A stretch of 64,000 nucleotides of DNA from an uncultured bacterium (GCA_964523975.1 CAZGBM010000002.1:1324-65323); one strand, 5' to 3'; counted from the first letter of the stretch, positions 3,060 through 61,619 are shown. The notes: generated by a model not told the origin, from the letters alone. Made by a program: numbers and translations.

Positions 3060-3286
3060 TTTTCAGCCACAGATTATACAGAGTTCTTAATTGCCTCCAA
3101 ACACCTATCTTTTGGCAACAAATTGTCCGAATTTCACAAATGAATCAGGTATAATCACTTTTATTAATATAGAAAATAGAGTTCACCTTTTTAATATTTG
3201 CGTTATTCTTCTAAATTAGTTGTTCCACTATTTTTTAATTCATTTTGGAACTTTTTTCTTTTTGAAGTCTTCTTTTTTTCGGTAAA

Positions 3287-8938: not shown

Positions 8939-10240
8939 ATGAAAATTTGTGTTATAGGTACCGGATATGTAGGATTGGTGGTTGGAACAGGCCTCTCCGA
9001 GACCGGGAATAAAGTTATCTGTGTAGATAGTGATGAAGAAAAAATACAAAAATTAAAAAACAATATAGTACCAATTTATGAGCCTGGGCTGGAAGAACTA
9101 ATTAAGAGAAATCAAAGAGAATATCGTCTTTCTTTCTCCACATCAGTTAAAGATGCCGTTTCGATTTCGGATATTATTTTTATTGCCGTCGGGACCCCGG
9201 AAAAGGAAGACGGATCTGTAGATTTATCTCATGTATATGCTATTGCCGAAGAAATTGGGGAAGCAATGGGCAGTGAGCATAAAATTATAATTAACAAGAG
9301 TACTGTACCTGTAGGAACAGCGAGAGAAGTCGAGAAAAAAATAAAAAGTAAAACCAAAGCAAGTTTTGACGTTATTTCCAATCCCGAATTTTTAAAAGAG
9401 GGTAGTGCCGTTCAGGATTTTATGAAGCCGGATAGAATTATAATAGGGATGGATAATAAAAAAGTAGCCGAAAAAATAATGGAGCTTTATGAACCTTTCG
9501 TAAGAACCGGAAACCCGATTATTGTTATGGGAATCGAGAGTGCTGAGATGACGAAATATGCAAGTAATACGATGCTCGCAAGCAGAATATCTTTTATGAA
9601 CGAAATAGCAAATCTTTGCGAGAAAGTGGGAGCTGATGTTGAAGAAGTTAGAATAGGTATGGGAAAAGATCCGAGAATCGGGTCAAAATTTCTTTTTCCT
9701 GGAATTGGCTATGGAGGGTCATGTTTCCCTAAAGACGTTAAAGGGTTGGTTCAAAAAGGGAAACAATATGGGCTCCCGATGAAATTCTGTGAAGGCGTAG
9801 ATTTCGTGAACGAATCTCAGAAAAAATTAATCGTAAAAAAAATAAAAGCAAGGTTCAATAAACTGAAAGGGAAAAAAATGGCAATTTGGGGTTTATCTTT
9901 CAAGCCTCAAACTGACGATATGAGAGAGGCCCCTTCTGTTGTTACATTAAACCTTCTTCTTTCCGAGGGAGTTCATATAAGTGCGTATGACCCTCAAGCT
10001 ATGGAAAATGCAAAGGAAATTTTCGGAGACAGAATAAAATACTGTGCTACGCCATACGATTGTTTAAAAGGAGCCGAAGCTCTTATCGTTCTTACAGAGT
10101 GGAATGAGTTTAGAAATCCGGATTTCGAGAAAATCGGCAACCTGATGGCAGGGAAGCTGATATTTGATGGCAGAAACATCTATGACCCTGTCAGGGTAAA
10201 AGATTCGGGATTCGAGTATTACGGAATAGGTAGAGGTTAA
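8939..10240 (+). CDS. ugd: UDP-glucose 6-dehydrogenase
   Basis: N-terminal Rossmann motif VIGTGYVGLV and the catalytic-Cys region GGSCFPKD. Length 433 aa. Confidence 0.88.
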   Translation: MKICVIGTGYVGLVVGTGLSETGNKVICVDSDEEKIQKLKNNIVPIYEPGLEELIKRNQREYRLSFSTSVKDAVSISDIIFIAVGTPEKEDGSVDLSHVYAIAEEIGEAMGSEHKIIINKSTVPVGTAREVEKKIKSKTKASFDVISNPEFLKEGSAVQDFMKPDRIIIGMDNKKVAEKIMELYEPFVRTGNPIIVMGIESAEMTKYASNTMLASRISFMNEIANLCEKVGADVEEVRIGMGKDPRIGSKFLFPGIGYGGSCFPKDVKGLVQKGKQYGLPMKFCEGVDFVNESQKKLIVKKIKARFNKLKGKKMAIWGLSFKPQTDDMREAPSVVTLNLLLSEGVHISAYDPQAMENAKEIFGDRIKYCATPYDCLKGAEALIVLTEWNEFRNPDFEKIGNLMAGKLIFDGRNIYDPVRVKDSGFEYYGIGRG

Positions 10241-24252: not shown

Positions 24253-24494
24253 GACTCACCCACCCCCCGCCCGTTTTTCAACCACAAAGCTCACAAAGAC
24301 CACAAAGTTTTTTATTTTAAGCTAACAACTAACAGAAAAAACTATTTTTAACAACAAATCACACAAATAACACGAATAAAGTTTTTGTTACCGGTATCTG
24401 GTATCCGGTATCCGGAATCTAAAGTATAACACGAAACACAAAACTCGTAACCCGAACTTAATTATCTATTTCACCAATATCAAGGAACTTTTGC

Positions 24495-26381: not shown

Positions 26382-26512
26382 ATGAAAATAATAATTTTCT
26401 ATCTAAATATTGTCAAGGATAAAGATAAAATTTAGTGTATTTTTTGAAAAATTTTTTTATCTTACCTCTTGACATAATATTAATTTTGACAAATAATAAA
26501 CAGTACATTACT

Positions 26513-27856
26513 ATGAAAACGAGAAAGGAAAGCCAGAACGAATTCGACTGGAAGCAAATAAAGAAGGAACTCCAGAAGGAAATTAACGAATCTGCTTTTA
26601 AAGCTTGGTTTGCAAATATGGATTTGGAAGAGTTAAAGGGTGAGGATGTGTATTTTAACATTCCAAACACGTTTACCCAGCACTGGATAAAAGAACATTT
26701 TATGAATAATTTAACCTCTTCAATAAAAGAAGTTACGGGGAAACTTTATAATGTACATTTTCTTGTAAACAAAAAAACAAATTTGGAAACAAATGAACAA
26801 CAAGAAACAGAAGAGGAACAACAGAAAATACAAAAACCTTTTTTACATGATAAATACACTTTCGAGAACTTTGTTGTGGGCGATAATAGTAAGTTCGCCT
26901 ATGCTGCAGCTATGGCTGTCTCCAACGCGCCGGGCAGAGAATATAACCCTCTCTTTATATACGGGGGAGTCGGATTAGGGAAAACACATCTATTACAAGC
27001 AACTGGAAACAGAGTCTACTCTCAATATCCCAATCTTCGTATACTTTACACTCAAACAGAAGAATTTCTTAATGAAATGATAAAGTCTATTCAGGAATAC
27101 TCGACAGTACAATTTAAACGAAAGTACAGAGAAATAGACCTTCTTTTAATTGATGATATCCATTTTCTCTCGGGTAAAGAAAGATTACAGGAAGAGTTCT
27201 TTCACACATTCAACGCTCTCTTTGAAGCAAAAAAGCAAATAGTTATAACTTCCGACAGGCCCCCCAAGGAGATTTCTGGCCTTGAAGAAAGGGTTATTTC
27301 TCGTTTTCACTGGGGTTTAATGGTAGATCTTCAGCCTCCTGATTACGAAACGCGTTTAGCTATTCTGCGTTCTAAAATACAAAGCGATAATATTCAAATC
27401 AGCGACAGTGTAATTAATTATATAGCCTCCAATATAAAAAACAACATTAGAGAATTAGAAGGGTGTTTAATAAAATTATTGGCGCACGCTTCTATATATA
27501 AAACAGATATTACCGTAGAACTCGCCAAAAAAGTTCTAACTGATTTTATTAAAGAAAAAGAAAAAAGAATAACACTTGAAAAAATCATTAAATCTGTTTC
27601 CGAGTTTTATAATATAGATGCAGATGAAATAAAAGGAGGTAAAAGATCCAAAAGCGTCGCTCAAGCTCGTCAGATTGCCATTTACCTTTCAAGACACTTA
27701 ACAAATCTTTCATTAAAAGAAATCGGTAACGGCTTTGGGAAAAGAGACCATTCTACAATTCTACATTCTTTCAACAAAATCGAAAATTTAATGCGGAAAA
27801 ACAATAGGATAAAAGGGGATATTTCAACCATAAAAAGTAAATTGACGGAAACTTAA
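26513..27856 (+). CDS. dnaA: chromosomal replication initiator protein DnaA
   Basis: AAA+ Walker A motif GGVGLGKTHL and domain IV (KRSKSVAQARQIAIYLSRHLT...STILHS). Start taken at MKTRK at 26513; the ORF track's upstream extension is hydrophobic junk. Confidence 0.9.
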   Translation: MKTRKESQNEFDWKQIKKELQKEINESAFKAWFANMDLEELKGEDVYFNIPNTFTQHWIKEHFMNNLTSSIKEVTGKLYNVHFLVNKKTNLETNEQQETEEEQQKIQKPFLHDKYTFENFVVGDNSKFAYAAAMAVSNAPGREYNPLFIYGGVGLGKTHLLQATGNRVYSQYPNLRILYTQTEEFLNEMIKSIQEYSTVQFKRKYREIDLLLIDDIHFLSGKERLQEEFFHTFNALFEAKKQIVITSDRPPKEISGLEERVISRFHWGLMVDLQPPDYETRLAILRSKIQSDNIQISDSVINYIASNIKNNIRELEGCLIKLLAHASIYKTDITVELAKKVLTDFIKEKEKRITLEKIIKSVSEFYNIDADEIKGGKRSKSVAQARQIAIYLSRHLTNLSLKEIGNGFGKRDHSTILHSFNKIENLMRKNNRIKGDISTIKSKLTET

Positions 27857-28021
27857 TGGAAAAATGTTTTATCAACAATTTATCTACATATAAATATGGA
27901 TAAACATATAGAAAGAATCACGAAAATAAATGAAGAAATTAGATTATCCACTTATCTACAATACCTACAATGACTACTAATTTATTATATTATTATAAGT
28001 AATGGTAAGAAAGGAGGAAAA
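27857..28021. promoter_or_regulatory. putative oriC segment: AT-rich dnaA-dnaN intergenic region with 4 DnaA-box-like 9-mers
   Basis: TTATCAACA (27869-27877), TTATCTACA (27880-27888), TTATCCACT (27944-27952) and TTATCTACA (27952-27960). Each is 8/9 to the TTATCCACA consensus. The region is an AT-rich flank. Confidence 0.55.
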
Positions 28022-29101
28022 ATGTTGTTTTCAGTAAATGCCGAAGATTTTATTAAAGAGTTTAAATCTGTAATTCAAATTGTACCTATCCACACAACTT
28101 TTCCTATACTATCTAATGTGCGGATAAAAATAGAAAAAGAAAAAATAAATATTTTTGCAACTGACCTTGATACTTCTTTGATGTATATTATGGATTTATG
28201 TAAAACAGAAAAAATAGGTGTTATTGTGGTTCCTGCGAAAACCCTATTCTCAATAATGGGAGAAATAAAGGGCGAAACGATTTTCCACAGGGAAGAAAAC
28301 AGAGTAAAGATTGAATATAAAAAAGGCTATTTTTACCTACCTTTAATGGAAGAGGAAGATTTTCCTTCCGAGCCCGTAATAACGGAAGACGAGACCTATG
28401 AGTTAAATACGGAAGAGATCAACGAAATTATAGATAAACTTGTTTTTATTGTTCCCGAGGATTCGGCTAAAAGAAAAATGAGTGGAATGCTATGGGATTA
28501 CGAAGATAAAAATCTGCGTCTTGTAGCAACAGATAGTTTTAGTCTTGGTTACAAAGACATTAAGGTCAATCTTGGAAATAAACCTTTTAAAGTGGTGGTT
28601 CCTCCAAAGATTCTAAGACAGTTAGCTACTTTTAACGTCAAGAAAATGAAAATCGGTGTTGATGAAAGCAGAATTTATTTCTTAGGAGATAAATTTACAT
28701 TAGTCTCAAATTTGATAAAAGTCGATTTCCCAAATTATAAGGCTGTAATATCGGAACAAAACGATAACTTTCTTACCCTGGACAGAGAATCTTTTCTTTC
28801 CTCTCTTAGACGGGTCTCTGTTTTTTCGAATGATAGACCCAAAACTATAAATTTGGATTTAGGAGATAACTTAAACATTGAAGTTTTCTCGGAAATAGGA
28901 GAAAGTAAGGAAGAGTTGGAGGGAGAGTATAAAGGTAAAAAAATAAATATAGCTCTTTCTTCCAATTATTTAATTGATTTTTTAAGAAAGATCAAATCTC
29001 CTAAAGTAATTTTAAGTTTTGAAGCCGAAAATAAACCTATTACAATAGAAGGAGAGAAAAAAGAAATATTTTATCTTTTAATGCCTATAACAATAGAATA
29101 A
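28022..29101 (+). CDS. dnaN: DNA polymerase III beta subunit (sliding clamp)
   Basis: 359 aa with three-domain clamp architecture. Lies immediately downstream of dnaA. Confidence 0.88.
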   Translation: MLFSVNAEDFIKEFKSVIQIVPIHTTFPILSNVRIKIEKEKINIFATDLDTSLMYIMDLCKTEKIGVIVVPAKTLFSIMGEIKGETIFHREENRVKIEYKKGYFYLPLMEEEDFPSEPVITEDETYELNTEEINEIIDKLVFIVPEDSAKRKMSGMLWDYEDKNLRLVATDSFSLGYKDIKVNLGNKPFKVVVPPKILRQLATFNVKKMKIGVDESRIYFLGDKFTLVSNLIKVDFPNYKAVISEQNDNFLTLDRESFLSSLRRVSVFSNDRPKTINLDLGDNLNIEVFSEIGESKEELEGEYKGKKINIALSSNYLIDFLRKIKSPKVILSFEAENKPITIEGEKKEIFYLLMPITIE

Positions 29102-31472: not shown

Positions 31473-31721
31473 GTTTTTTCGTAGATAGAAAACAATATTT
31501 GATTAAATCAGATAAAAATTTTTATTTTTTTTAAAAAATTACTCAAACAGCCCTTGACTTATCAAAATGATTTTTTATTATAATTATATACATAAAAAAT
31601 GGAGAGAGACAGGTTTTTTATATTAAGTGTTAATGTTATAGGGTTTTTTCGGTATTCGGAAAAAGTGAAGACTTCATATCTCTGGTAAAAGAATGAATTA
31701 TTATTTAAAGGAGGGTAATTA

Positions 31722-34745: not shown

Positions 34746-34792
34746 CCCCGTGGAATAGAAGAAACTACCTGATGAACTCCTATTCCACGGGG
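34746..34792 (+). terminator. 13-bp perfect hairpin downstream of nrdG (possible terminator/structured element)
   Basis: CCCCGTGGAATAG - 21 nt - CTATTCCACGGGG. No clean T-tract follows. Confidence 0.35.
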
Positions 34793-34872
34793 CAAGCAAA
34801 GCCGCTAAAAAGTAAAGATCAAATATCAAAATGTAAAATTACAGATCAAAATTCAAAAATGAATAAAAAAGA

Positions 34873-34990
34873 AACAACAAATCACACGAATAGCACAAAT
34901 ATTAACAAAACAGACATTATTTTCTATATTAATAAAAATGATTATTCTTGATTTATTTGTGAAATTTGTGCAATTTGTTGTTAAAAAATG
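34873..34990. repeat. intergenic inverted-repeat element (copy A of a dispersed family)
   Basis: AACAACAAATCACACGAATAGCACAAATATT ... tattaataaaaatgatt ... ATTTGTGAAATTTGTGCAATTTGTTGTT. Near-identical internal sequence to copy B at 52551-52668. Confidence 0.6.
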
Positions 34991-35082
34991 GGTTGTTGGG
35001 TGAAAAACAATAAAAACTCTGTGCTCTCTGTGGTAAAAAATTTCTGGAGTGGTGGGTATATGGGCTCTGTGTTTTTTTGTCT

Positions 35083-35499
35083 TTAATTTTTAGTTTTTTT
35101 TATACTTACAATTTCCGGTAAAAGAGAACCACTCTTTAATATTTTTTTATCGACAAATAAGAATATAAGAAAGTATAAAAACATAAGTCCCATACCCAAT
35201 AAAAAACCAGCAAGGTCTGTACTCCAGATTTTCTTTCCCAGGAGCACTCCTCCTATAAGAAAAAAAAGAGGGAGACCAAAATTTAAAAAGGTGGCTATAA
35301 AAAAGTTTCTTTTTTTTGTCCCAATCTGCACAATATCTCCTTCTTCTGCACCTTTTTCGTTTTTGCAAACTAATTCTCTTCCATTTTTGTCTATACGACA
35401 AAAGTTGGAAAATTCGCAGGAATCACAGTTGTCCGGAAGGGCTATAAGTACAGTTGCTCTATTTTTATTTGTTTTGATAACTTTTCCTGTTTCTTTCAT
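35083..35499 (-). CDS. RseC/MucC family (SoxR-reducing system) membrane protein
   Basis: N-terminal Cys cluster CDSCEFSNFC followed by two TM helices. The topology is typical of PF04246. Confidence 0.55.
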   Translation of the reverse strand: MKETGKVIKTNKNRATVLIALPDNCDSCEFSNFCRIDKNGRELVCKNEKGAEEGDIVQIGTKKRNFFIATFLNFGLPLFFLIGGVLLGKKIWSTDLAGFLLGMGLMFLYFLIFLFVDKKILKSGSLLPEIVSIKKTKN

Positions 35500-35718
35500 A
35501 GAATTTTTCCCACAAGAGATATTGGGCTATCCGCTTTCCGCTAAACCCAACCCCACAAACCATTTTTCAACATGTAGAAAATGTAGAACCTGTAGTTTTT
35601 TGTTTTTAATTCTATATAGACTACATGACCTACATGTGTAAACTTTTTTGTTTTCTCTGCGGTTAGCAGTGAGAGGTAAGCCGGAAGCGGTTTATTACCT
35701 GCCCACTATTTTCCAATT

Positions 35719-45714: not shown

Positions 45715-45786
45715 TTGAAAATAAAAAAGGGATCGAACGAAATGATTTCGCCCAATCCCTCTTTTTATTTACTTAAAAGGTCACCC

Positions 45787-46275: not shown

Positions 46276-46651
46276 CTTTCCTCCTTTTTTGGGATTTTCT
46301 TTTCCGTTTAGTATGATGACTAAATAAGACAATTTGTCAACCCTCCGCACTAAGAAAATTGCCACAGAGACACAGAGAGCACAGAGAAAAAACATATTAT
46401 TTGTGTTAAAAATTTCCACCCTACAACACCAAATATTTAGACAGGATTAACACATACGATTAAATTGTTGGTCTGTTAGTCCGTTGGTCTGTTAAAAAAA
46501 CACACCAACTCACTAACACGCTAACTAAAGAAGTTATTGACATATTTTACAATCAAGATATAATTATACAGAAATTAAGAAGAGAAAGAAAGAACCAATG
46601 TGGTTTCTTTCTAATATGATAAATAAGGAGTGAAAAACTAAAGAATTAATT

Positions 46652-47707: not shown

Positions 47708-47919
47708 CTCCCAACCAAATAAGGCTTTTCCCCTTAACTATTAGCAAATACCCTATAACTTCCCTCAACTTACTGCAGTCATCGGACTTCTGTTTTTTTG
47801 ACTAACGACTCGTGACTCATGACACGTGACTGATTTTAGATTCGGAAAATCTAAAATCCCCCCTTGACAAATCCGTAAACTTGTTTATAATATAAACTAA
47901 ACTATACTATAAACCGGAG

Positions 47920-49158: not shown

Positions 49159-49432
49159 ATTGGGGTTTAGGATTTTGGTAACGGAGTCATGAGTCATCAG
49201 TCTCCACTCCCCAGTCGTGACAATAGAAGCTACAGTATCTACATGTTTTACATGTGTAAATTTTTGAGGTGTGGTGAGGTTTTAAACAAACAAAAAACTG
49301 GGGTTGTGGGATGTGCCTCTGTGTTTTTTTTCTGTGTTCTCTGTGGCAAAAAAAGGGAAGGTGGTGGTGCTTACTTGACTTATAATTGAATATTTTTATT
49401 ATAACTAAGTAATATATTTAAAAGGAGGAGAA

Positions 49433-50078: not shown

Positions 50079-51311
50079 GTGATTCTATTTCTGCTTCTTT
50101 CTCTTAATCTGACTCTTGATGATGCAATCGAAATTGGTTTGAGCGAGAGCCCTTCTTATTTACAGGCAAAAAAGGAATTGATGTTAATACAAAAGACGAA
50201 CGCTTCCGCATATTCAACCCTTCTTCCCTCCGCGTCCGCAGGGTATGTAGAAGCCAGGACTCGTTCAAGACTTGACGGAGCGGAAATTTACGATTCTACA
50301 GATAGCTATTATAACTTTAGAATGGAATGGGATTTAACCCCGGGTGATTTTTTGAATGCTTTTTCTGCTCACTACGGTAATAACACAGCATATTTTTCTT
50401 TTATGGACACGAGGAATCAAACAATATATGAAATCATATCTCAGTATCTCAACACCCTTAAACTTGAAAAGCTATTCGAGAGTAGAGAAAAGGCAGTAAA
50501 ACGCACAGAAAGCAATTTGAATCTCATCGAAGAAAAAAAACGGCTGGGTTCTGCTTCCAAAGCAGAAGTCTGGCAGGGAAAAGTAAACAATTTACAGGCG
50601 CAGTTAGATCTTCTGGAAACAGAAAAGAACCGGAAACTCAGCTTGCTCAGACTGAGGAAAATCATTGGGATGGAAGTAAAAGATACCGTTTTACTGGAGG
50701 AACCGAAAATCGATTTCAGGATACCCGAAAAAGATTCCATTCTAATACTGGCTATGAAGAAAGACCCTCTTCTTAACGAATATGATTCCGAAGTGAGGAA
50801 AGCGAGATTCGACTATTTGAAAACCTCGACAAGTAATCTTTTCACGGTTGCCTTCGGAGCGGTATACCAATACCAGGATGAGCGTATTCCAAGTGTTGAC
50901 CTGGTGCAGAACAATTACGATTATTCGATAGGATTTTCAATATCCGTGCCTTTGTTTACCGGATTTTCCAGGGTTAATGATTTACTTATAGCAGAGTTGA
51001 AAGTGGATTTAGCCAATCTAAAATTAAAGGAAAGAGAAAAAGAATTACGAATATCGGTCGAAGAAGATTACTTGTTATATGGTGAAGCCCGGCAAAGATT
51101 ACAGCTGGCAGAAACTACCGTAAGTTTCGCCGAGGAGAGCCATAAAGCCGCAAGCGAAAGATACCGCCTGGGAGAATCTTCAATGATTGAACTACTGGGA
51201 GCGGAAGAGGATTTGTTAAGGGCACAATATTCCCTGACCGAAGCTCGATTTGACTGGTATCTCTCTCTGTTTAGATTGAAAAGGCTTATGGGGAGGTTAT
51301 ATGAAGAATAA
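50079..51311 (+). CDS. TolC-like outer membrane efflux protein
   Basis: Tandem OEP repeats. Signal-peptide start taken at the GTG at 50079; the ORF track starts at 50043, overlapping the upstream gene. Confidence 0.7.
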   Translation: MILFLLLSLNLTLDDAIEIGLSESPSYLQAKKELMLIQKTNASAYSTLLPSASAGYVEARTRSRLDGAEIYDSTDSYYNFRMEWDLTPGDFLNAFSAHYGNNTAYFSFMDTRNQTIYEIISQYLNTLKLEKLFESREKAVKRTESNLNLIEEKKRLGSASKAEVWQGKVNNLQAQLDLLETEKNRKLSLLRLRKIIGMEVKDTVLLEEPKIDFRIPEKDSILILAMKKDPLLNEYDSEVRKARFDYLKTSTSNLFTVAFGAVYQYQDERIPSVDLVQNNYDYSIGFSISVPLFTGFSRVNDLLIAELKVDLANLKLKEREKELRISVEEDYLLYGEARQRLQLAETTVSFAEESHKAASERYRLGESSMIELLGAEEDLLRAQYSLTEARFDWYLSLFRLKRLMGRLYEE

Positions 51312-52464
51312 GAAAAAGTTGATTATCGGGTCTTCGATAATTTTGATAATTGTTATCATAATATTTGCCAATTTGAAGAAAACAGGCGGCGTAAGCGTAA
51401 CGGCTTCAAAAGTAGAGAAGGGAGAAATAGAAGAGATAGTTTCCGCTCCCGGAGAAATCCACGCAAAGGAAGAGAGAAAAATTAACGCCGAGGTTACGGC
51501 AGAAGTAATTAAATTATATGTAGAAGAAGGCGATTGGGTCAAAAAAGGGCAGATCCTCGTAAAATTAGATTCCACCGAACAGTTTGCGGCATACAACAGG
51601 GCACTTGCCAATGTGAACGCTCAGAGAGCCGATCTTGAATTCAGAACAGAACAAATGAAAAGGAAAAAAGAGTTATATGAAAAAGGTTTGATTTCTCGAG
51701 AAAATTTCGATAATATCGCAACCGAAGTCGAACTCGCCCAAAGCAATCTCGAAAATGCCAGGACCGAGTTAAACAGAGCAAAAAGAATGCTTGAAAGGGC
51801 TACTATCCGCTCTCCTATCATGGGTACCGTAATGGAGATAGATAAAGAGGAGGGAGAGGTGGTTGTGGCTGGAACCATCAACAATCCCGGCTCTATAATA
51901 TTGACCGTTTCGGATCTTGGAAATATGGAAATGGTTGCAGATGTGAATGAAAGTGAAATTCCTCTCGTATCTATAGGAGACACTGCTAGAATAACAGTGG
52001 ATGCTTTTACAGATACGACGTTCACCGGTATCGTATACTATAAAGCAAGTATGCCGAAGGAAGCAAGCTCCCAGGCAGCTGTCGAGTTTGAAGTTAAAAT
52101 ATCAATCCCTCATCATGCCGGGATGCTGCCGGGTATGAGTTCGAACTGCGAAATAGTAACCGCCAGGAAAGATAGCGTTCTCAGGATACCTTTGCAATCG
52201 CTCGTTACTAAAGACAAAAAGAGCGGAGTCTATAAAATAGAAAACGATAAGACGAAATTCGTCGAGACCAAAACAGGAATAATGGAAGGGAAATGGGTCG
52301 AAATTAAAGAAGGCCTCCTGGAAAACGACCTCATTGTCACCGGACCTATTAAAACCTTGATGAGTCTTACGGATAATCAAAAGGCAAATTGGAAAGAAGA
52401 GAAAGAAGACTCTTTGACAGTAGAAGATAAAACTAAAACGAAAAATCGCGAGGATAGCCCCTAG
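51301..52464 (+). CDS. efflux periplasmic adaptor (HlyD/MacA family)
   Basis: N-terminal TM segment, a coiled-coil hairpin and beta-barrel domains. Confidence 0.75.
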   Translation: MKNKKKLIIGSSIILIIVIIIFANLKKTGGVSVTASKVEKGEIEEIVSAPGEIHAKEERKINAEVTAEVIKLYVEEGDWVKKGQILVKLDSTEQFAAYNRALANVNAQRADLEFRTEQMKRKKELYEKGLISRENFDNIATEVELAQSNLENARTELNRAKRMLERATIRSPIMGTVMEIDKEEGEVVVAGTINNPGSIILTVSDLGNMEMVADVNESEIPLVSIGDTARITVDAFTDTTFTGIVYYKASMPKEASSQAAVEFEVKISIPHHAGMLPGMSSNCEIVTARKDSVLRIPLQSLVTKDKKSGVYKIENDKTKFVETKTGIMEGKWVEIKEGLLENDLIVTGPIKTLMSLTDNQKANWKEEKEDSLTVEDKTKTKNREDSP

Positions 52465-52550
52465 CGAGGCAAAGCCTCTAAAATGAAAAAATTAAATATA
52501 AAAATGGAAAATGACAGATTAAAATTCAAAGATAAATTAAAAATAGAAGC

Positions 52551-52668
52551 AACGAATCACACGAATAACACAAATATTAAAAAAATAGTCTTTATTTTTC
52601 TATGTTAATAAAAATGATTGTTTCAAATTCATTTGTGAAATTTGTGCAAATTGTTGTTAAAAAATGGG
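52551..52668. repeat. intergenic inverted-repeat element (copy B), lying between the MFP and permease genes
   Basis: ...AATCACACGAATAACACAAATATT ... ttaataaaaatgattgtt ... ATTTGTGAAATTTGTGCAAATTGTTGTT. High identity to copy A. Confidence 0.6.
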
Positions 52669-52812
52669 TTGTTTTGGGTGGGATATAGATATGATTTTGC
52701 ATTTTTATTTGTCATTTTGCTTTTTAATTTTTTATATTTTATTTACCGGAAAAGGAGTGTAAAATTAAATGAGATATGTTTTTCAGAGAAAGTTACCCTA
52801 TAATACTATGAG

Positions 52813-54057
52813 GTGACCAGAATGTTCAGGGGTTTTCTGATCGAAATTTTGCGCTCGTCAATCGAGTCGATAAAGGCTAACAAGCTTCGTTCTCTGCTTA
52901 CAACTCTTGGTATTGTAATCGGAGTTATGACTGTTATCGGTGTAATGTCTGTTATTTCGGGACTCAAAAATAATGTGGCTAATACTTTTTCACAGCTAGG
53001 TAAAAATGTTCTGTATGTAGATAAATATCCATGGTCCATGGGACATATGAGTAGGGAGGAATGGGATAAGATTAGAAAGAGGGACAACATCGACACAAAA
53101 GAGTTGGAGGCTCTGAAGGAATACGGAACTTCTTTAGAATATGTATCTCCCCTTGTTACAAGAAATTTGAATATGAATAGAGGAGAAAAAGAAGCGGCCG
53201 AAGTCGAGATAAACGGAACTTCTGAAGACTTTGACAGAATACGTAATCGAAACGTAAAACTTGGACGTTTCCTTTCAAAAGATGACTTAAAATACAAGAG
53301 ACACGTTTGCGTTCTTGGGACAAAGGTGGTTGAAACTCTATTCCCGGATGAAAACCCTGTTGGCAATAAAGTAAAAATCCAGGGGAGGCAGTTTAACGTA
53401 ATCGGCGTACTCGAAGAAAAGGGAGAAATGATGGGATGGAATATGGATAATGTTGCGGTTATTCCCTTTACAACAATGACCGAATTCACAGGGAGAAGCG
53501 ATCGTTCTATTACGATAGCAATCTATGCCGAGAATGAAGAAGAAGCAACAGAGGAAATCAGATGGATACTACGGGGAGCACGTAATTTAAAACCCGGAGA
53601 AGAAGACGATTTTTCAATTAATTCTTCTGAAGCCTTGATAACTCAATTCAACCAATTAACCAAAACGATATTCTTAATTTCGATTGCAATTGCCGCAATT
53701 TCCTTAATCGTAGGCGGAATCGGAATAATGAACATAATGCTTGTTTCCGTTTCCGAAAGAACAAGAGAAATAGGCGTCAGGAAAGCAATAGGAGCAAAAT
53801 CAAGTGAAATTCTTGGACAATTTCTTATGGAATCCGTGGTAATATGTCTGGTGGGCGGATTTTTAGGAATTTTACTGGGAGCCTCACTTACAAAGTTAAT
53901 TTCTATTATGAGTAATGGAAATCTGCCCTTCTATATCCCGATATGGTCGATATTTCTCGGCTTTGGTTTTTGCTGCAGTATCGGCATTTTCTTTGGTTAC
54001 TATCCCGCAAGAAAAGCTTCAAAGCTGAGTCCTGTGGAAGCTCTTCGTTATGAGTGA
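52813..54057 (+). CDS. ABC transporter permease, MacB/FtsX family
   Basis: N-terminal TM segment, a large periplasmic domain and three C-terminal TM helices (FtsX). Confidence 0.8.
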   Translation: MTRMFRGFLIEILRSSIESIKANKLRSLLTTLGIVIGVMTVIGVMSVISGLKNNVANTFSQLGKNVLYVDKYPWSMGHMSREEWDKIRKRDNIDTKELEALKEYGTSLEYVSPLVTRNLNMNRGEKEAAEVEINGTSEDFDRIRNRNVKLGRFLSKDDLKYKRHVCVLGTKVVETLFPDENPVGNKVKIQGRQFNVIGVLEEKGEMMGWNMDNVAVIPFTTMTEFTGRSDRSITIAIYAENEEEATEEIRWILRGARNLKPGEEDDFSINSSEALITQFNQLTKTIFLISIAIAAISLIVGGIGIMNIMLVSVSERTREIGVRKAIGAKSSEILGQFLMESVVICLVGGFLGILLGASLTKLISIMSNGNLPFYIPIWSIFLGFGFCCSIGIFFGYYPARKASKLSPVEALRYE

Positions 54058-55832: not shown

Positions 55833-55890
55833 AAGTTTAACCACAAAATAAGCATAATTTTTAATACCTCCCGCCAACCCTTTTTTAACA

Positions 55891-55998
55891 ACAAATAGCA
55901 CAAATTACACAAATATATTAAGAATAAAATTTTTTGTTAATAAAAGTAGAAATTCTTTTGTTTTCATTCGTGCTATTCGTGTAATTTGTTGTTTCTAA
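55891..55998. repeat. intergenic inverted-repeat element (copy C)
   Basis: AACAACAAATAGCACAAATTACACAAATAT ... ATTCGTGCTATTCGTGTAATTTGTTGTT. The arms are imperfect inverted repeats. Confidence 0.55.
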
Positions 55999-56080
55999 TT
56001 CTGGGATGTGTTGGGTTTTAAACAACAAAAATATAGTTTTTTTCTCTGTGTGTTTGTTTTTTCTTTGTGGTCTCTGTAGT

Positions 56081-60397: not shown

Positions 60398-60606
60398 ACA
60401 AAAAAAACATTTACCACAAAGAACACAAAGAGCACAAAGTTGTTTATTCTTTAGCTAACAGCTAAAGGCAAAAAGCTAAATTCTTAGTTTAACAACAAAT
60501 TACACGAATATCACGAATATTTTTTAAACTTGGAACTCAAAACAATCGTCCGTTGATTAATAAGAAGATTACATATATTATTATTCTAAATAATAAGGAG
60601 TTATAA

Positions 60607-61434: not shown

Positions 61435-61619
61435 CTTTTTGTTCAACAAAAAATAAAATAAAACACAGAAGTGGAAATAGCAAATTAGTGAATTAGTTGA
61501 TTGGTGAATTAGTAGGAAAATTGCTAAAAGCCAAAGGTGAAAAGCTAAGAGCTATGTAGAAACCGGTATCTGGTACCTGGTATCTGGTATCTGGTATCTA
61601 AAATTCACCACAGAGTTTT

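Follow-up and report, generated by a model that had tools for sequence, protein, structure and literature searches.

Small interspersed repeats shape bacterial operons, terminators and genome rearrangement, and they have been described almost only from cultured Proteobacteria, Firmicutes and cyanobacteria. BIME/REP elements of enterobacteria and REPINs of Pseudomonas are intergenic, ORF-less mosaics of palindromic units that occur in hundreds of copies. The REP unit is a small palindrome with a conserved 5' tetranucleotide, and REP/REPIN doublets, found at gene 3' ends and in operons, fold into long imperfect hairpins and have no target-site duplication (TSD). REPIN populations are rich in identical copies, and RAYT, the mobilising enzyme of REPs, is unlinked to individual copies. 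The cyanobacterial heptamer repeats (STRR) and small dispersed repeats (SDR) were reportedly described by Elhai and colleagues. They are intergenic arrays of a few tandem 7-nt units, of several families, in Nostocaceae; SDR modules are nested in other repeats or hairpins, and their presence or absence between relatives indicates mobility. We know of no transposase or mechanism associated with STRR/SDR. Correia/NEMIS (Neisseria), RUP (Streptococcus) and Nezha (cyanobacteria) are multi-copy MITEs of ~100-150 bp with terminal inverted repeats (TIRs) and no ORF; they insert intergenically and within operons and can carry outward promoters. BOX of Streptococcus pneumoniae is intergenic and modular (boxA-boxB(n)-boxC) with a hairpin-forming transcript, and to our knowledge its mobilisation has no known mechanism. 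Copies of ERIC/IRU in enterobacteria have diverged to ~80-90% identity yet are conserved across species.

Here we describe a repeat family that is real and previously undescribed, resembles these mosaic repeats and matches none of the described families. It was followed up from a 64-kb stretch of DNA of an uncultured WOR-3 bacterium (the window), in which a first-pass annotation had listed three full copies (A, B and C) of a ~115-bp inverted-repeat element and two solo half-arms. The window was searched with the arm pattern AACAACAAATNNCACRAATNNCACRAAT, allowing at most 3 mismatches, and 100 dinucleotide-preserving shuffles served as the control. Eight intact 28-nt arms were found in the window versus none in the 100 shuffles; they form three inverted pairs (A, B and C) and two solo arms, and are given below with a decayed fourth copy.

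34873-34982, + strand: core of copy A, with arms at 34873-34900 (+) and 34955-34982 (-) and a 54-nt loop
52548-52658, + strand: core of copy B, with arms at 52548-52575 (+) and 52631-52658 (-) and a 55-nt loop
55887-55993, - strand: core of copy C, with a right-type arm at 55887-55914, a 51-nt loop and a left-type arm (reverse complement) at 55966-55993
3097-3217, - strand: decayed fourth full copy, 78% complementary to A over 121 nt
24350-24377, + strand: solo left-type arm, a pattern match 3' of a UPF0047 gene
60491-60518, + strand: solo left-type arm, a pattern match downstream of hypF

A profile built from 131 arms of other genomes (nhmmer) recovered the same eight window arms with E values of 1e-4 to 3e-10, and gave one extra weak match at 3116-3145 (E=0.08) within the decayed copy. 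The decayed copy has a second inverted match of 80%, a right-type arm (GGCAACAAATTGTCCGAATTTCACAAAT, ~3114-3141), a loop homologous to that of A and a degenerate left arm. The count of three full copies therefore held for A, B and C, which are real, and missed this fourth one; both solo half-arms lie at the sites given for them, and the earlier coordinates were correct within 3-8 nt. Copies A and B, called nearly identical in the annotation, have 90% identity over 78 nt and 84.9% over 212 nt. The left arm of copy A reads AACAACAAAT CA CACGAAT AG CACAAAT, and its right arm is followed by A6 and then a G-rich block at 34983-35002. The arms of copy B deviate from the pattern by two mismatches on the left and one on the right, and copy C has a C-rich block and T6 upstream on the + strand.

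All copies lie between ORFs whose identities are supported by Pfam, which upholds the intergenic placement. Copy A is flanked by the convergent genes nrdG (radical SAM) and rseC, and copy C lies between a GT4 glycosyltransferase gene and TspO. Copy B is situated, as annotated, inside an efflux operon with the Pfam gene row OEP-HlyD-MacB-ABC, where the genes on either side of it encode the HlyD-type adaptor (51301-52464) and the MacB/FtsX permease (52822-54057). A protein identical to this HlyD adaptor is encoded on a JGI metagenome contig. Also in the window are dnaA (26435-27856) and dnaN (28022-29101); gene orientation is mostly '-' at 3.5-23.4 kb and mostly '+' to the right of dnaA/dnaN, and a chromosomal replication origin probably lies in or near 26435-29101. 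A promoter and ~150-nt leader upstream of nrdD (~31560-31721) could be aligned with those of L196, L198 and L199 despite divergent surroundings. This leader had no Rfam match at gathering, and it may be a conserved regulatory leader, with NrdR boxes or an RNA element.

The arm consists of three direct 9-nt units, (A)ACAACAAAT, NNCACRAAT and NNCACRAAT, which make up a 28-nt form of AACAACAAAT-NN-CACRAAT-NN-CACRAAT. We analyzed polarity in 30 oriented pairs from all sources. The left arm was AACAAC[A/G]AAT-[C/G]A-CAC[G]AAT-A[G/A]-CAC[G]AAT with AGAG(G/A/T) in front, and carried A at position 12 in 30/30 and at position 20 in 29/30. The right arm, as reverse complement, was AACAACAAAT-[A/T][G/T]-CAC[A]AAT-NN-CAC[A]AAT, with A6 next to it on the top strand and then a G-rich block, for example TGGGTGGTGTGGG. 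The element is polar, since its CACGAAT-rich left and CACAAAT-rich right arms differ systematically; A and B have '+' polarity, and C and the decayed copy '-'. On the pol+ strand the three R positions paired (Watson-Crick or G.U) in 30/30, 24/30 and 30/30 cases, compared with 15/30, 11/30 and 12/30 on the other strand, where pairing is poorer because of A.C mismatches. The heptamers (CACRAAT) and their 9-nt register were nearly invariant; the spacer dinucleotides were mismatched on both strands, two spacer positions being non-complementary between the arms. Loops ranged from 21 to 93 nt, and long-loop copies had a common core, ..TTTTCTATATTAATAAAAATGATT.., in an orientation fixed relative to polarity. 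RNA folding of copies A, B and C, as had been proposed, showed that the cores fold on either strand with z scores of -2.5 to -6.1 (-28.4/-31.8 kcal/mol and z -3.9/-6.1 for copy A), with a strand preference that was inconsistent between copies.

Alignment of 22 oriented copies with their flanks, together with flank inspection, revealed a nested architecture. The outermost layer is CACAAAG x2-3 paired with CTCTGTG x2-3, the middle layer is TTTAAAACCC and a C-rich block paired with a G-rich block, and innermost are AGAGG, the left arm, the loop, the right arm and A6. In the A/B subfamily the outer pair is formed by an A-rich array (AAAATGCAAAAATTAAATATCAAAATGTAAAATTACAAATCAAAGTTCAAAAAT) and its T-rich complement. 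Ahead of the A-rich array lies a small GC hairpin (AGCGGCAAAGCCGCT) that directly adjoins the upstream gene's stop codon. Copies whose loop itself holds another palindromic module occur in L054 and L083/L099. Similarity runs far past the ~115 bp first annotated, the repeated unit being a composite of ~190-360 bp that begins at or beside a stop codon. Three composites were delimited.

34796-35082, + strand: composite A, filling the convergent nrdG/rseC spacer
52451-52815, + strand: composite B, ~360 bp, between the macA stop and the macB start
55833-56024, - strand: composite C, which aligns with the same-site copy in L182/L183

Composite A contains, besides GC-hairpin remnants (..GCAAAGCCGCT), the A-rich array ATCAAATATCAAAATGTAAAATTACAGATCAAAATTCAAAAAT and its pairing partner, a T-rich array, together with the core, G-rich blocks and CTCTGTG arrays. 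In composite B the core is nested inside the outer A-rich/T-rich palindrome, and the whole folds into one nested hairpin of ~270 nt (-57.5 kcal/mol, z -2.0). The order in composite C is stop codon, CACAAA-type unit, C-rich block CCTCCCGCCAACCC, T6, core, G-rich block GGGATGTGTTGGG and TTTTAAAC. The module row around the solo arm at 24350-24377 is a C-rich block, CACAAAG x3, GCTAAC, the arm and GGTATCY x4, and the solo arm at 60491-60518 has CACAAAG x3 and GCTAA modules in front. The latter half-composite was found again whole in L025, L086, L050 and L052, and L186 has a paired copy downstream of its own hypF.

Most other 3'-end spacers of the window are filled by sibling modules that follow the same grammar with other unit sequences: two to four tandem units of 7-9 nt, bounded by T or A runs and often in inverted pairs.

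24283-24307, 60415-60439, 24390-24420 and 61562-61606, in the window: sibling modules
35567-35650, 46478-46545, 47800-47835, 49185-49376 and 56035-56080, in the window: sibling modules

Their types include CACAAAG, GGTATCY, a ACATGTAG pair, a GTTGGTCTG pair, GACTCATGA, CTCTGTG and G-rich blocks. CACAGAG, GGTATCT, GTTGGTC, GACTCAT and CCTAAAA are further sibling modules of the arm. All five clear convergent spacers in the window hold such modules, and the same types reappear in related MAGs in different combinations. A generic detector of three-unit arrays (periods 6-12 nt) gave, for period 9, 4.7 per 100 kb in the window versus 1.5 in unrelated loci, a detector too strict for these figures to inform.

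An exact-pattern scan of species-representative genomes gave at least 100 matches, in agreement with the expectation of further copies, so that dispersal in many copies is seen directly. Among the matches listed, nearly all came from 13 WOR-3-type MAGs of ~36-38% GC; one of these MAGs is labelled candidate division WOR-3 (JAFGHJ01) and has 75-86% nucleotide identity to the window over shared genes. The fetched WOR-3 loci contained ~31 paired and ~112 solo arms, and about three quarters of the family members are solo half-arms; as these are of either left or right type, they represent half elements. Arms were present in relatives down to 79% MacB identity, and none were found in 13-kb samples of relatives at 75% and 67%. 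No arm was found in 597 kb of unrelated bacterial loci, namely metagenome contigs with MacB homologues of at most 41% identity (L102-L181). Chance likeness of AT-rich spacers is excluded by this result and by the shuffles.

The arm also occurs outside WOR-3. A Geobacteraceae-binned contig of 56% GC carries a complete 97-bp pair, and the matches listed include a contig of 29% GC from a Desulfuromonadaceae bin as well as the 4.4-Mb chromosome OW818663.1, the dipeptidase of which has 80-82% identity to Paludibacter/Paludibacteraceae proteins. In OW818663.1 (L047 2600-4700), eight tandem ~270-bp units each contain a 69-bp arm pair; the units also have CAGTTAT heptamer runs and CGGGATGTC-type repeats, and the stretch is gene-free over 2.3 kb. 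Seven IMG/VR contigs (L189-L195, ~46-52% GC) carry arm pairs of 88-156 nt between consecutive genes. These contigs are Bacteroidota-type and phage-like, one of them encoding a holin, a Dam methylase and an HU-HIG protein. Their inner modules are 9-nt units of the GGAAGAAAC/GGAATTGAC type, and in L193 the 3' end of a holin-like ORF includes one arm. The INPHARED phages contained no match to the window element or to the phage-contig element, and a literature search for WOR-3 intergenic repeats and the arm sequences returned nothing relevant.

Comparison with relatives revealed filled and empty sites. MacB orthologues were located on contigs of relatives at 87, 87, 79, 75 and 67% identity. In all five (L182, L184, L186, L187 and L188), macA and macB abut, with 2-12 bp from stop to start or an overlap, and in the window the gap is 357 bp; composite B is therefore a lineage-specific insertion in the operon. 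The nrdG/rseC spacer also measures 357 bp in the window, compared with 151 bp in L196/L197, 13 bp in L198 and 8 bp in L199 (JAFGHJ01). Only the outermost parts are common to the window and L196/L197, where a GTTGGTCTG-type pair takes the place of the arms. The entire spacer around copy A is an insertion, with the newest material in the centre. A GC-rich hairpin (CCCCGTGGAATAG ... CTATTCCACGGGG, 34748-34795) lies directly after the nrdG stop codon in the window; it is missing from the homologous left end of the L196/L197 spacer and is thus a separate small insertion. In the PALP/rseC spacer (35640-35700), the block ctgcggttagcagtgagaggtaagccggaagcggtttattacc is conserved in L196 and L197 beside a variable ACATGTAG pair.

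Module turnover was likewise seen at shared sites. At GT/TspO, L182/L183 (87% MacB) have a copy at the site of copy C, and L184 (87%) and L186 (79%) carry other modules there. At HTH/Yip1 the gene end and promoter are conserved and the intervening modules differ in three of three close relatives, with a solo arm in L184. At the site downstream of UPF0047, the window and L029 agree in 28/29 positions of the solo arm, and the modules on both sides have been replaced. Presence/absence polymorphism at three sites already contradicts strict orthology of the copies. The GT4 glycosyltransferase ORF of L184 runs in frame into an arm (9006-9035) that takes the place of the relatives' stop codon and lengthens the ORF by nine codons (NNKSHKFHK*).

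Divergence was examined at copy C. It is 79% identical to the same-site copy of L182 (152/192; arms 86-91%, loop 73%), the spacer beyond the composite 43%, and fourfold-degenerate sites of the four flanking genes 55-65%. The 79% identity set against that of the fourfold-degenerate sites suggests constraint. Copy C is equally similar (76-79%) to non-orthologous copies in other species. Among 119 elements, pairs within a genome had a median identity of 76.5% and pairs between species 75.9%, and no pair reached 95%. Because likeness within genomes equals that between species, the consensus is maintained across species though single sites turn over. A conserved reader or mobiliser would account for this pattern, as would host selection acting on the motif. 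A recent burst of copying was considered and is a misfit, given the two medians and the lack of near-identical copies.

To relate arms to gene orientation, spacers of the fetched loci were classified. In loci picked for containing arms, with both arms of a pair counted separately, 32 arms lay in convergent, 58 in co-directional and 9 in divergent spacers, compared with 21.9, 52.8 and 24.3 expected from spacer lengths in the same loci (chi-square p=6e-4); arms are enriched in convergent and depleted in divergent spacers. In co-directional spacers, polarity ran with the genes in 32 cases and against them in 26. The G-rich heptamer repeats of Nostoc and Xanthomonas are also reported to favour co-directional spacers and to be under-represented between divergent ORFs (PMC4692102).

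The first-pass annotation had called the geometry MITE-like. The terminal inverted 28-nt arms around 21-93 nt loops, the small size, the lack of an ORF, the multiple copies, and the filled and empty sites at macA/macB, nrdG/rseC, GT/TspO and HTH/Yip1 agree with this. The proposed search for target-site duplications found none: the flanks (..AGAGG / arm ... arm / AAAAAA TGGG..) are conserved element sequence and not direct repeats, and at the filled macA/macB site only GAGG is common to both junctions. The element resembles Correia, RUP and Nezha in being short, TIR-bearing, ORF-less, intergenic and intra-operon. Unlike MITEs, it lacks a TSD, occurs mostly as half elements, has no near-identical copies and is always embedded in larger composites; ~700 kb of sequence centred on arms yielded no IS or other autonomous partner bearing the ends of the element. 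Having no TSD, it falls outside the classic MITEs. Genes between inverted arms 300-7000 bp apart in the fetched loci were housekeeping genes (pyruvate kinase, ThyX, RluA-type and others) and contained no transposase or recombinase domain. The ~47 window ORFs scanned were free of transposase, integrase and reverse-transcriptase domains, and no RAYT/IS200-like gene was seen in the 64-kb window or the arm-centred 8-kb pieces of relatives.

Among the known families, the element appears, by analogy, most like the BIME/REP-REPIN mosaics and the cyanobacterial STRR/SDR. As in BIME/REP/REPIN, the elements are intergenic and ORF-less, occur at gene 3' ends and inside operons, lack a TSD, and include inverted doublets that form long hairpins in a mosaic with other motifs. 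In contrast to the REP unit, the WOR-3 arm is three direct 9-nt units unable to fold alone, and as the arm itself is not palindromic, the element does not belong to the REPs; unlike in REPIN populations, no copies reach 95% identity. With STRR/SDR it shares short tandem-unit arrays, nesting, presence/absence between relatives and the lack of a linked transposase. It differs from them in unrelated unit sequences, in its hosts (WOR-3/Bacteroidota versus Nostocaceae), in the dominance of 9-nt units and in a 28-nt polar arm conserved across phyla. It is modular, hairpin-forming, intergenic and moderately diverged across species like BOX and ERIC, but is unrelated to them in sequence, and its modules are much shorter, far more freely combined and arranged in nested palindromes.

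Several other explanations were weighed. The arms could belong to a cis element selected by the host at gene ends, that is, a terminator (perhaps bidirectional), a transcript-stabilising 3' structure or an insulator, in which case likeness would result from selection and not from copying. We give this a fairly low probability. It is consistent with the preference for convergent and co-directional over divergent spacers, with composites starting at stop codons, with the modules in every clear convergent window spacer, and with members remaining ~76-86% alike while synonymous sites are near saturation. The outer C-rich and G-rich blocks pair and are flanked by A/T runs, for example GGGTGGCGTGGG and TTTTTTGTTTT in L091 and likewise GGG..GGG (TTTTAAAC) in copy C, and several relatives have T runs after the stem on one or both strands, resembling the base of a bidirectional terminator. 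However, copies A, B and C gave no hit in a terminator scan, 2x2 internal loops interrupt an AU-rich core stem, and solo arms cannot form the hairpin. The organism also uses ordinary terminators, as a canonical bidirectional intrinsic terminator is present at 45722-45775 (AAAAAAGGGAT..ATCCCTCTTTTTATTT). Copy B lies in an operon where relatives have no spacer at all, and the elements are dispensable since they are missing at the same sites in close relatives. A terminator-proximal or stabilising role is nevertheless plausible, and is compatible with a mosaic repeat as a secondary effect. The regulator-binding array suggested by the first-pass annotation, here three heptamers at 9-nt spacing for an oligomeric DNA-, single-strand- or RNA-binding protein such as a nucleoid-associated protein, an uptake-signal receptor or a roadblock factor, seems less probable still. 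The near-invariant heptamers and register with non-complementary spacer positions argue for it, as do solo arms that persist while their neighbours are replaced, and the conservation of the same arm across phyla and in phages. Against it, the arm-to-arm spacing varies over 21-93 nt, arms sit at 3' ends instead of promoters, close relatives show turnover of sites, and no candidate protein was identified. The many sibling families, which share the architecture with unrelated units, would require many different proteins.

The same annotation had also mentioned an sRNA. A small RNA gene or strand-specific structured RNA, transcribed so that the G.U-compatible strand is the transcript, would account for the better pairing of the pol+ strand and for a TTAACA-17-TATATT site on that strand in the loops of the long-loop copies A and C. 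Yet the Rfam check gave no family match across the whole window at gathering and nothing relevant at E<=1 around A and C; this, with a polarity independent of gene direction (32:26), makes an sRNA unlikely, and we consider it highly so. The promoter-like site occurs at chance frequency in this AT-rich DNA, is kept in only part of the long-loop subfamily and is missing from short-loop copies, no consistent promoter or terminator was found, fold energies have no consistent strand preference, and the pairing asymmetry could just as well tell the left end of a mobile element from the right. An invertible, phase-variable promoter segment, as in Bacteroidales invertons, can scarcely be entertained. 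It would be in keeping with inverted repeats around a promoter-like sequence and with family relatives in Bacteroidota, but in all aligned long-loop copies the loop keeps one orientation with respect to arm and flank polarity, loops go down to 21-26 nt, and no recombinase gene was found nearby among the window ORFs scanned. Small-ORF, Shine-Dalgarno-mimic, Hfq (ARN)n, DnaA-box and IHF-site readings of the arm were inspected by eye, and none was consistent.

We favor the interpretation, to which we assign a probability of roughly 0.55, that the family is a non-autonomous mosaic repeat that enters gene-end spacers, preferably at the centres of palindromes, and is later partly overwritten, its ends being kept constant across species by a recognising factor. 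Copies would enter spacers at gene 3' ends, usually in the middle of an existing palindrome, and successive central insertions would give rise to long interrupted hairpins. Halves would later be replaced by other module types, leaving solo arms. With no mobilising gene linked to the element among the window ORFs or the genes between inverted arms, mobilisation would presumably depend on a trans-acting factor, with either the heptamer arrays or the hairpin as its recognition target. The inserted hairpins may be tolerated, or mildly useful as terminator-proximal or insulating structures. Sigma-70-like outward sites are found in the T-rich outer arm of B (TTGTCA-18-TATATT, 52709-52738) and of A (TTGTCT-18-TATACT, 35077-35106). 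The site in composite B faces macB ~80 nt upstream of its start codon, and may keep macB expressed. More tentatively, and with clearly lower confidence, the arm and its sibling modules could be the cis-sites of an undescribed mobilisation or templated-insertion system or, equivalently, a heptamer-array code read by a dedicated protein family. Such a mobilisation system may be TSD-less, target hairpin centres, work without a linked transposase, and be common to WOR-3, Bacteroidota and their phages.

These findings add a well-delimited family from an uncultured phylum (WOR-3) to the interspersed repeats, with clear insertions, one of which splits the macAB efflux operon. The modules mark gene boundaries in MAGs of the WOR-3 clade, where they likely cause contig breaks and misassembly. 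Conservation of a 28-nt polar end across phyla and phages with no linked enzyme makes the question of its mover or reader a testable one. The interest of the family would rise if this cross-phylum, enzyme-less and TSD-less behaviour reflects a new mobilisation mechanism.
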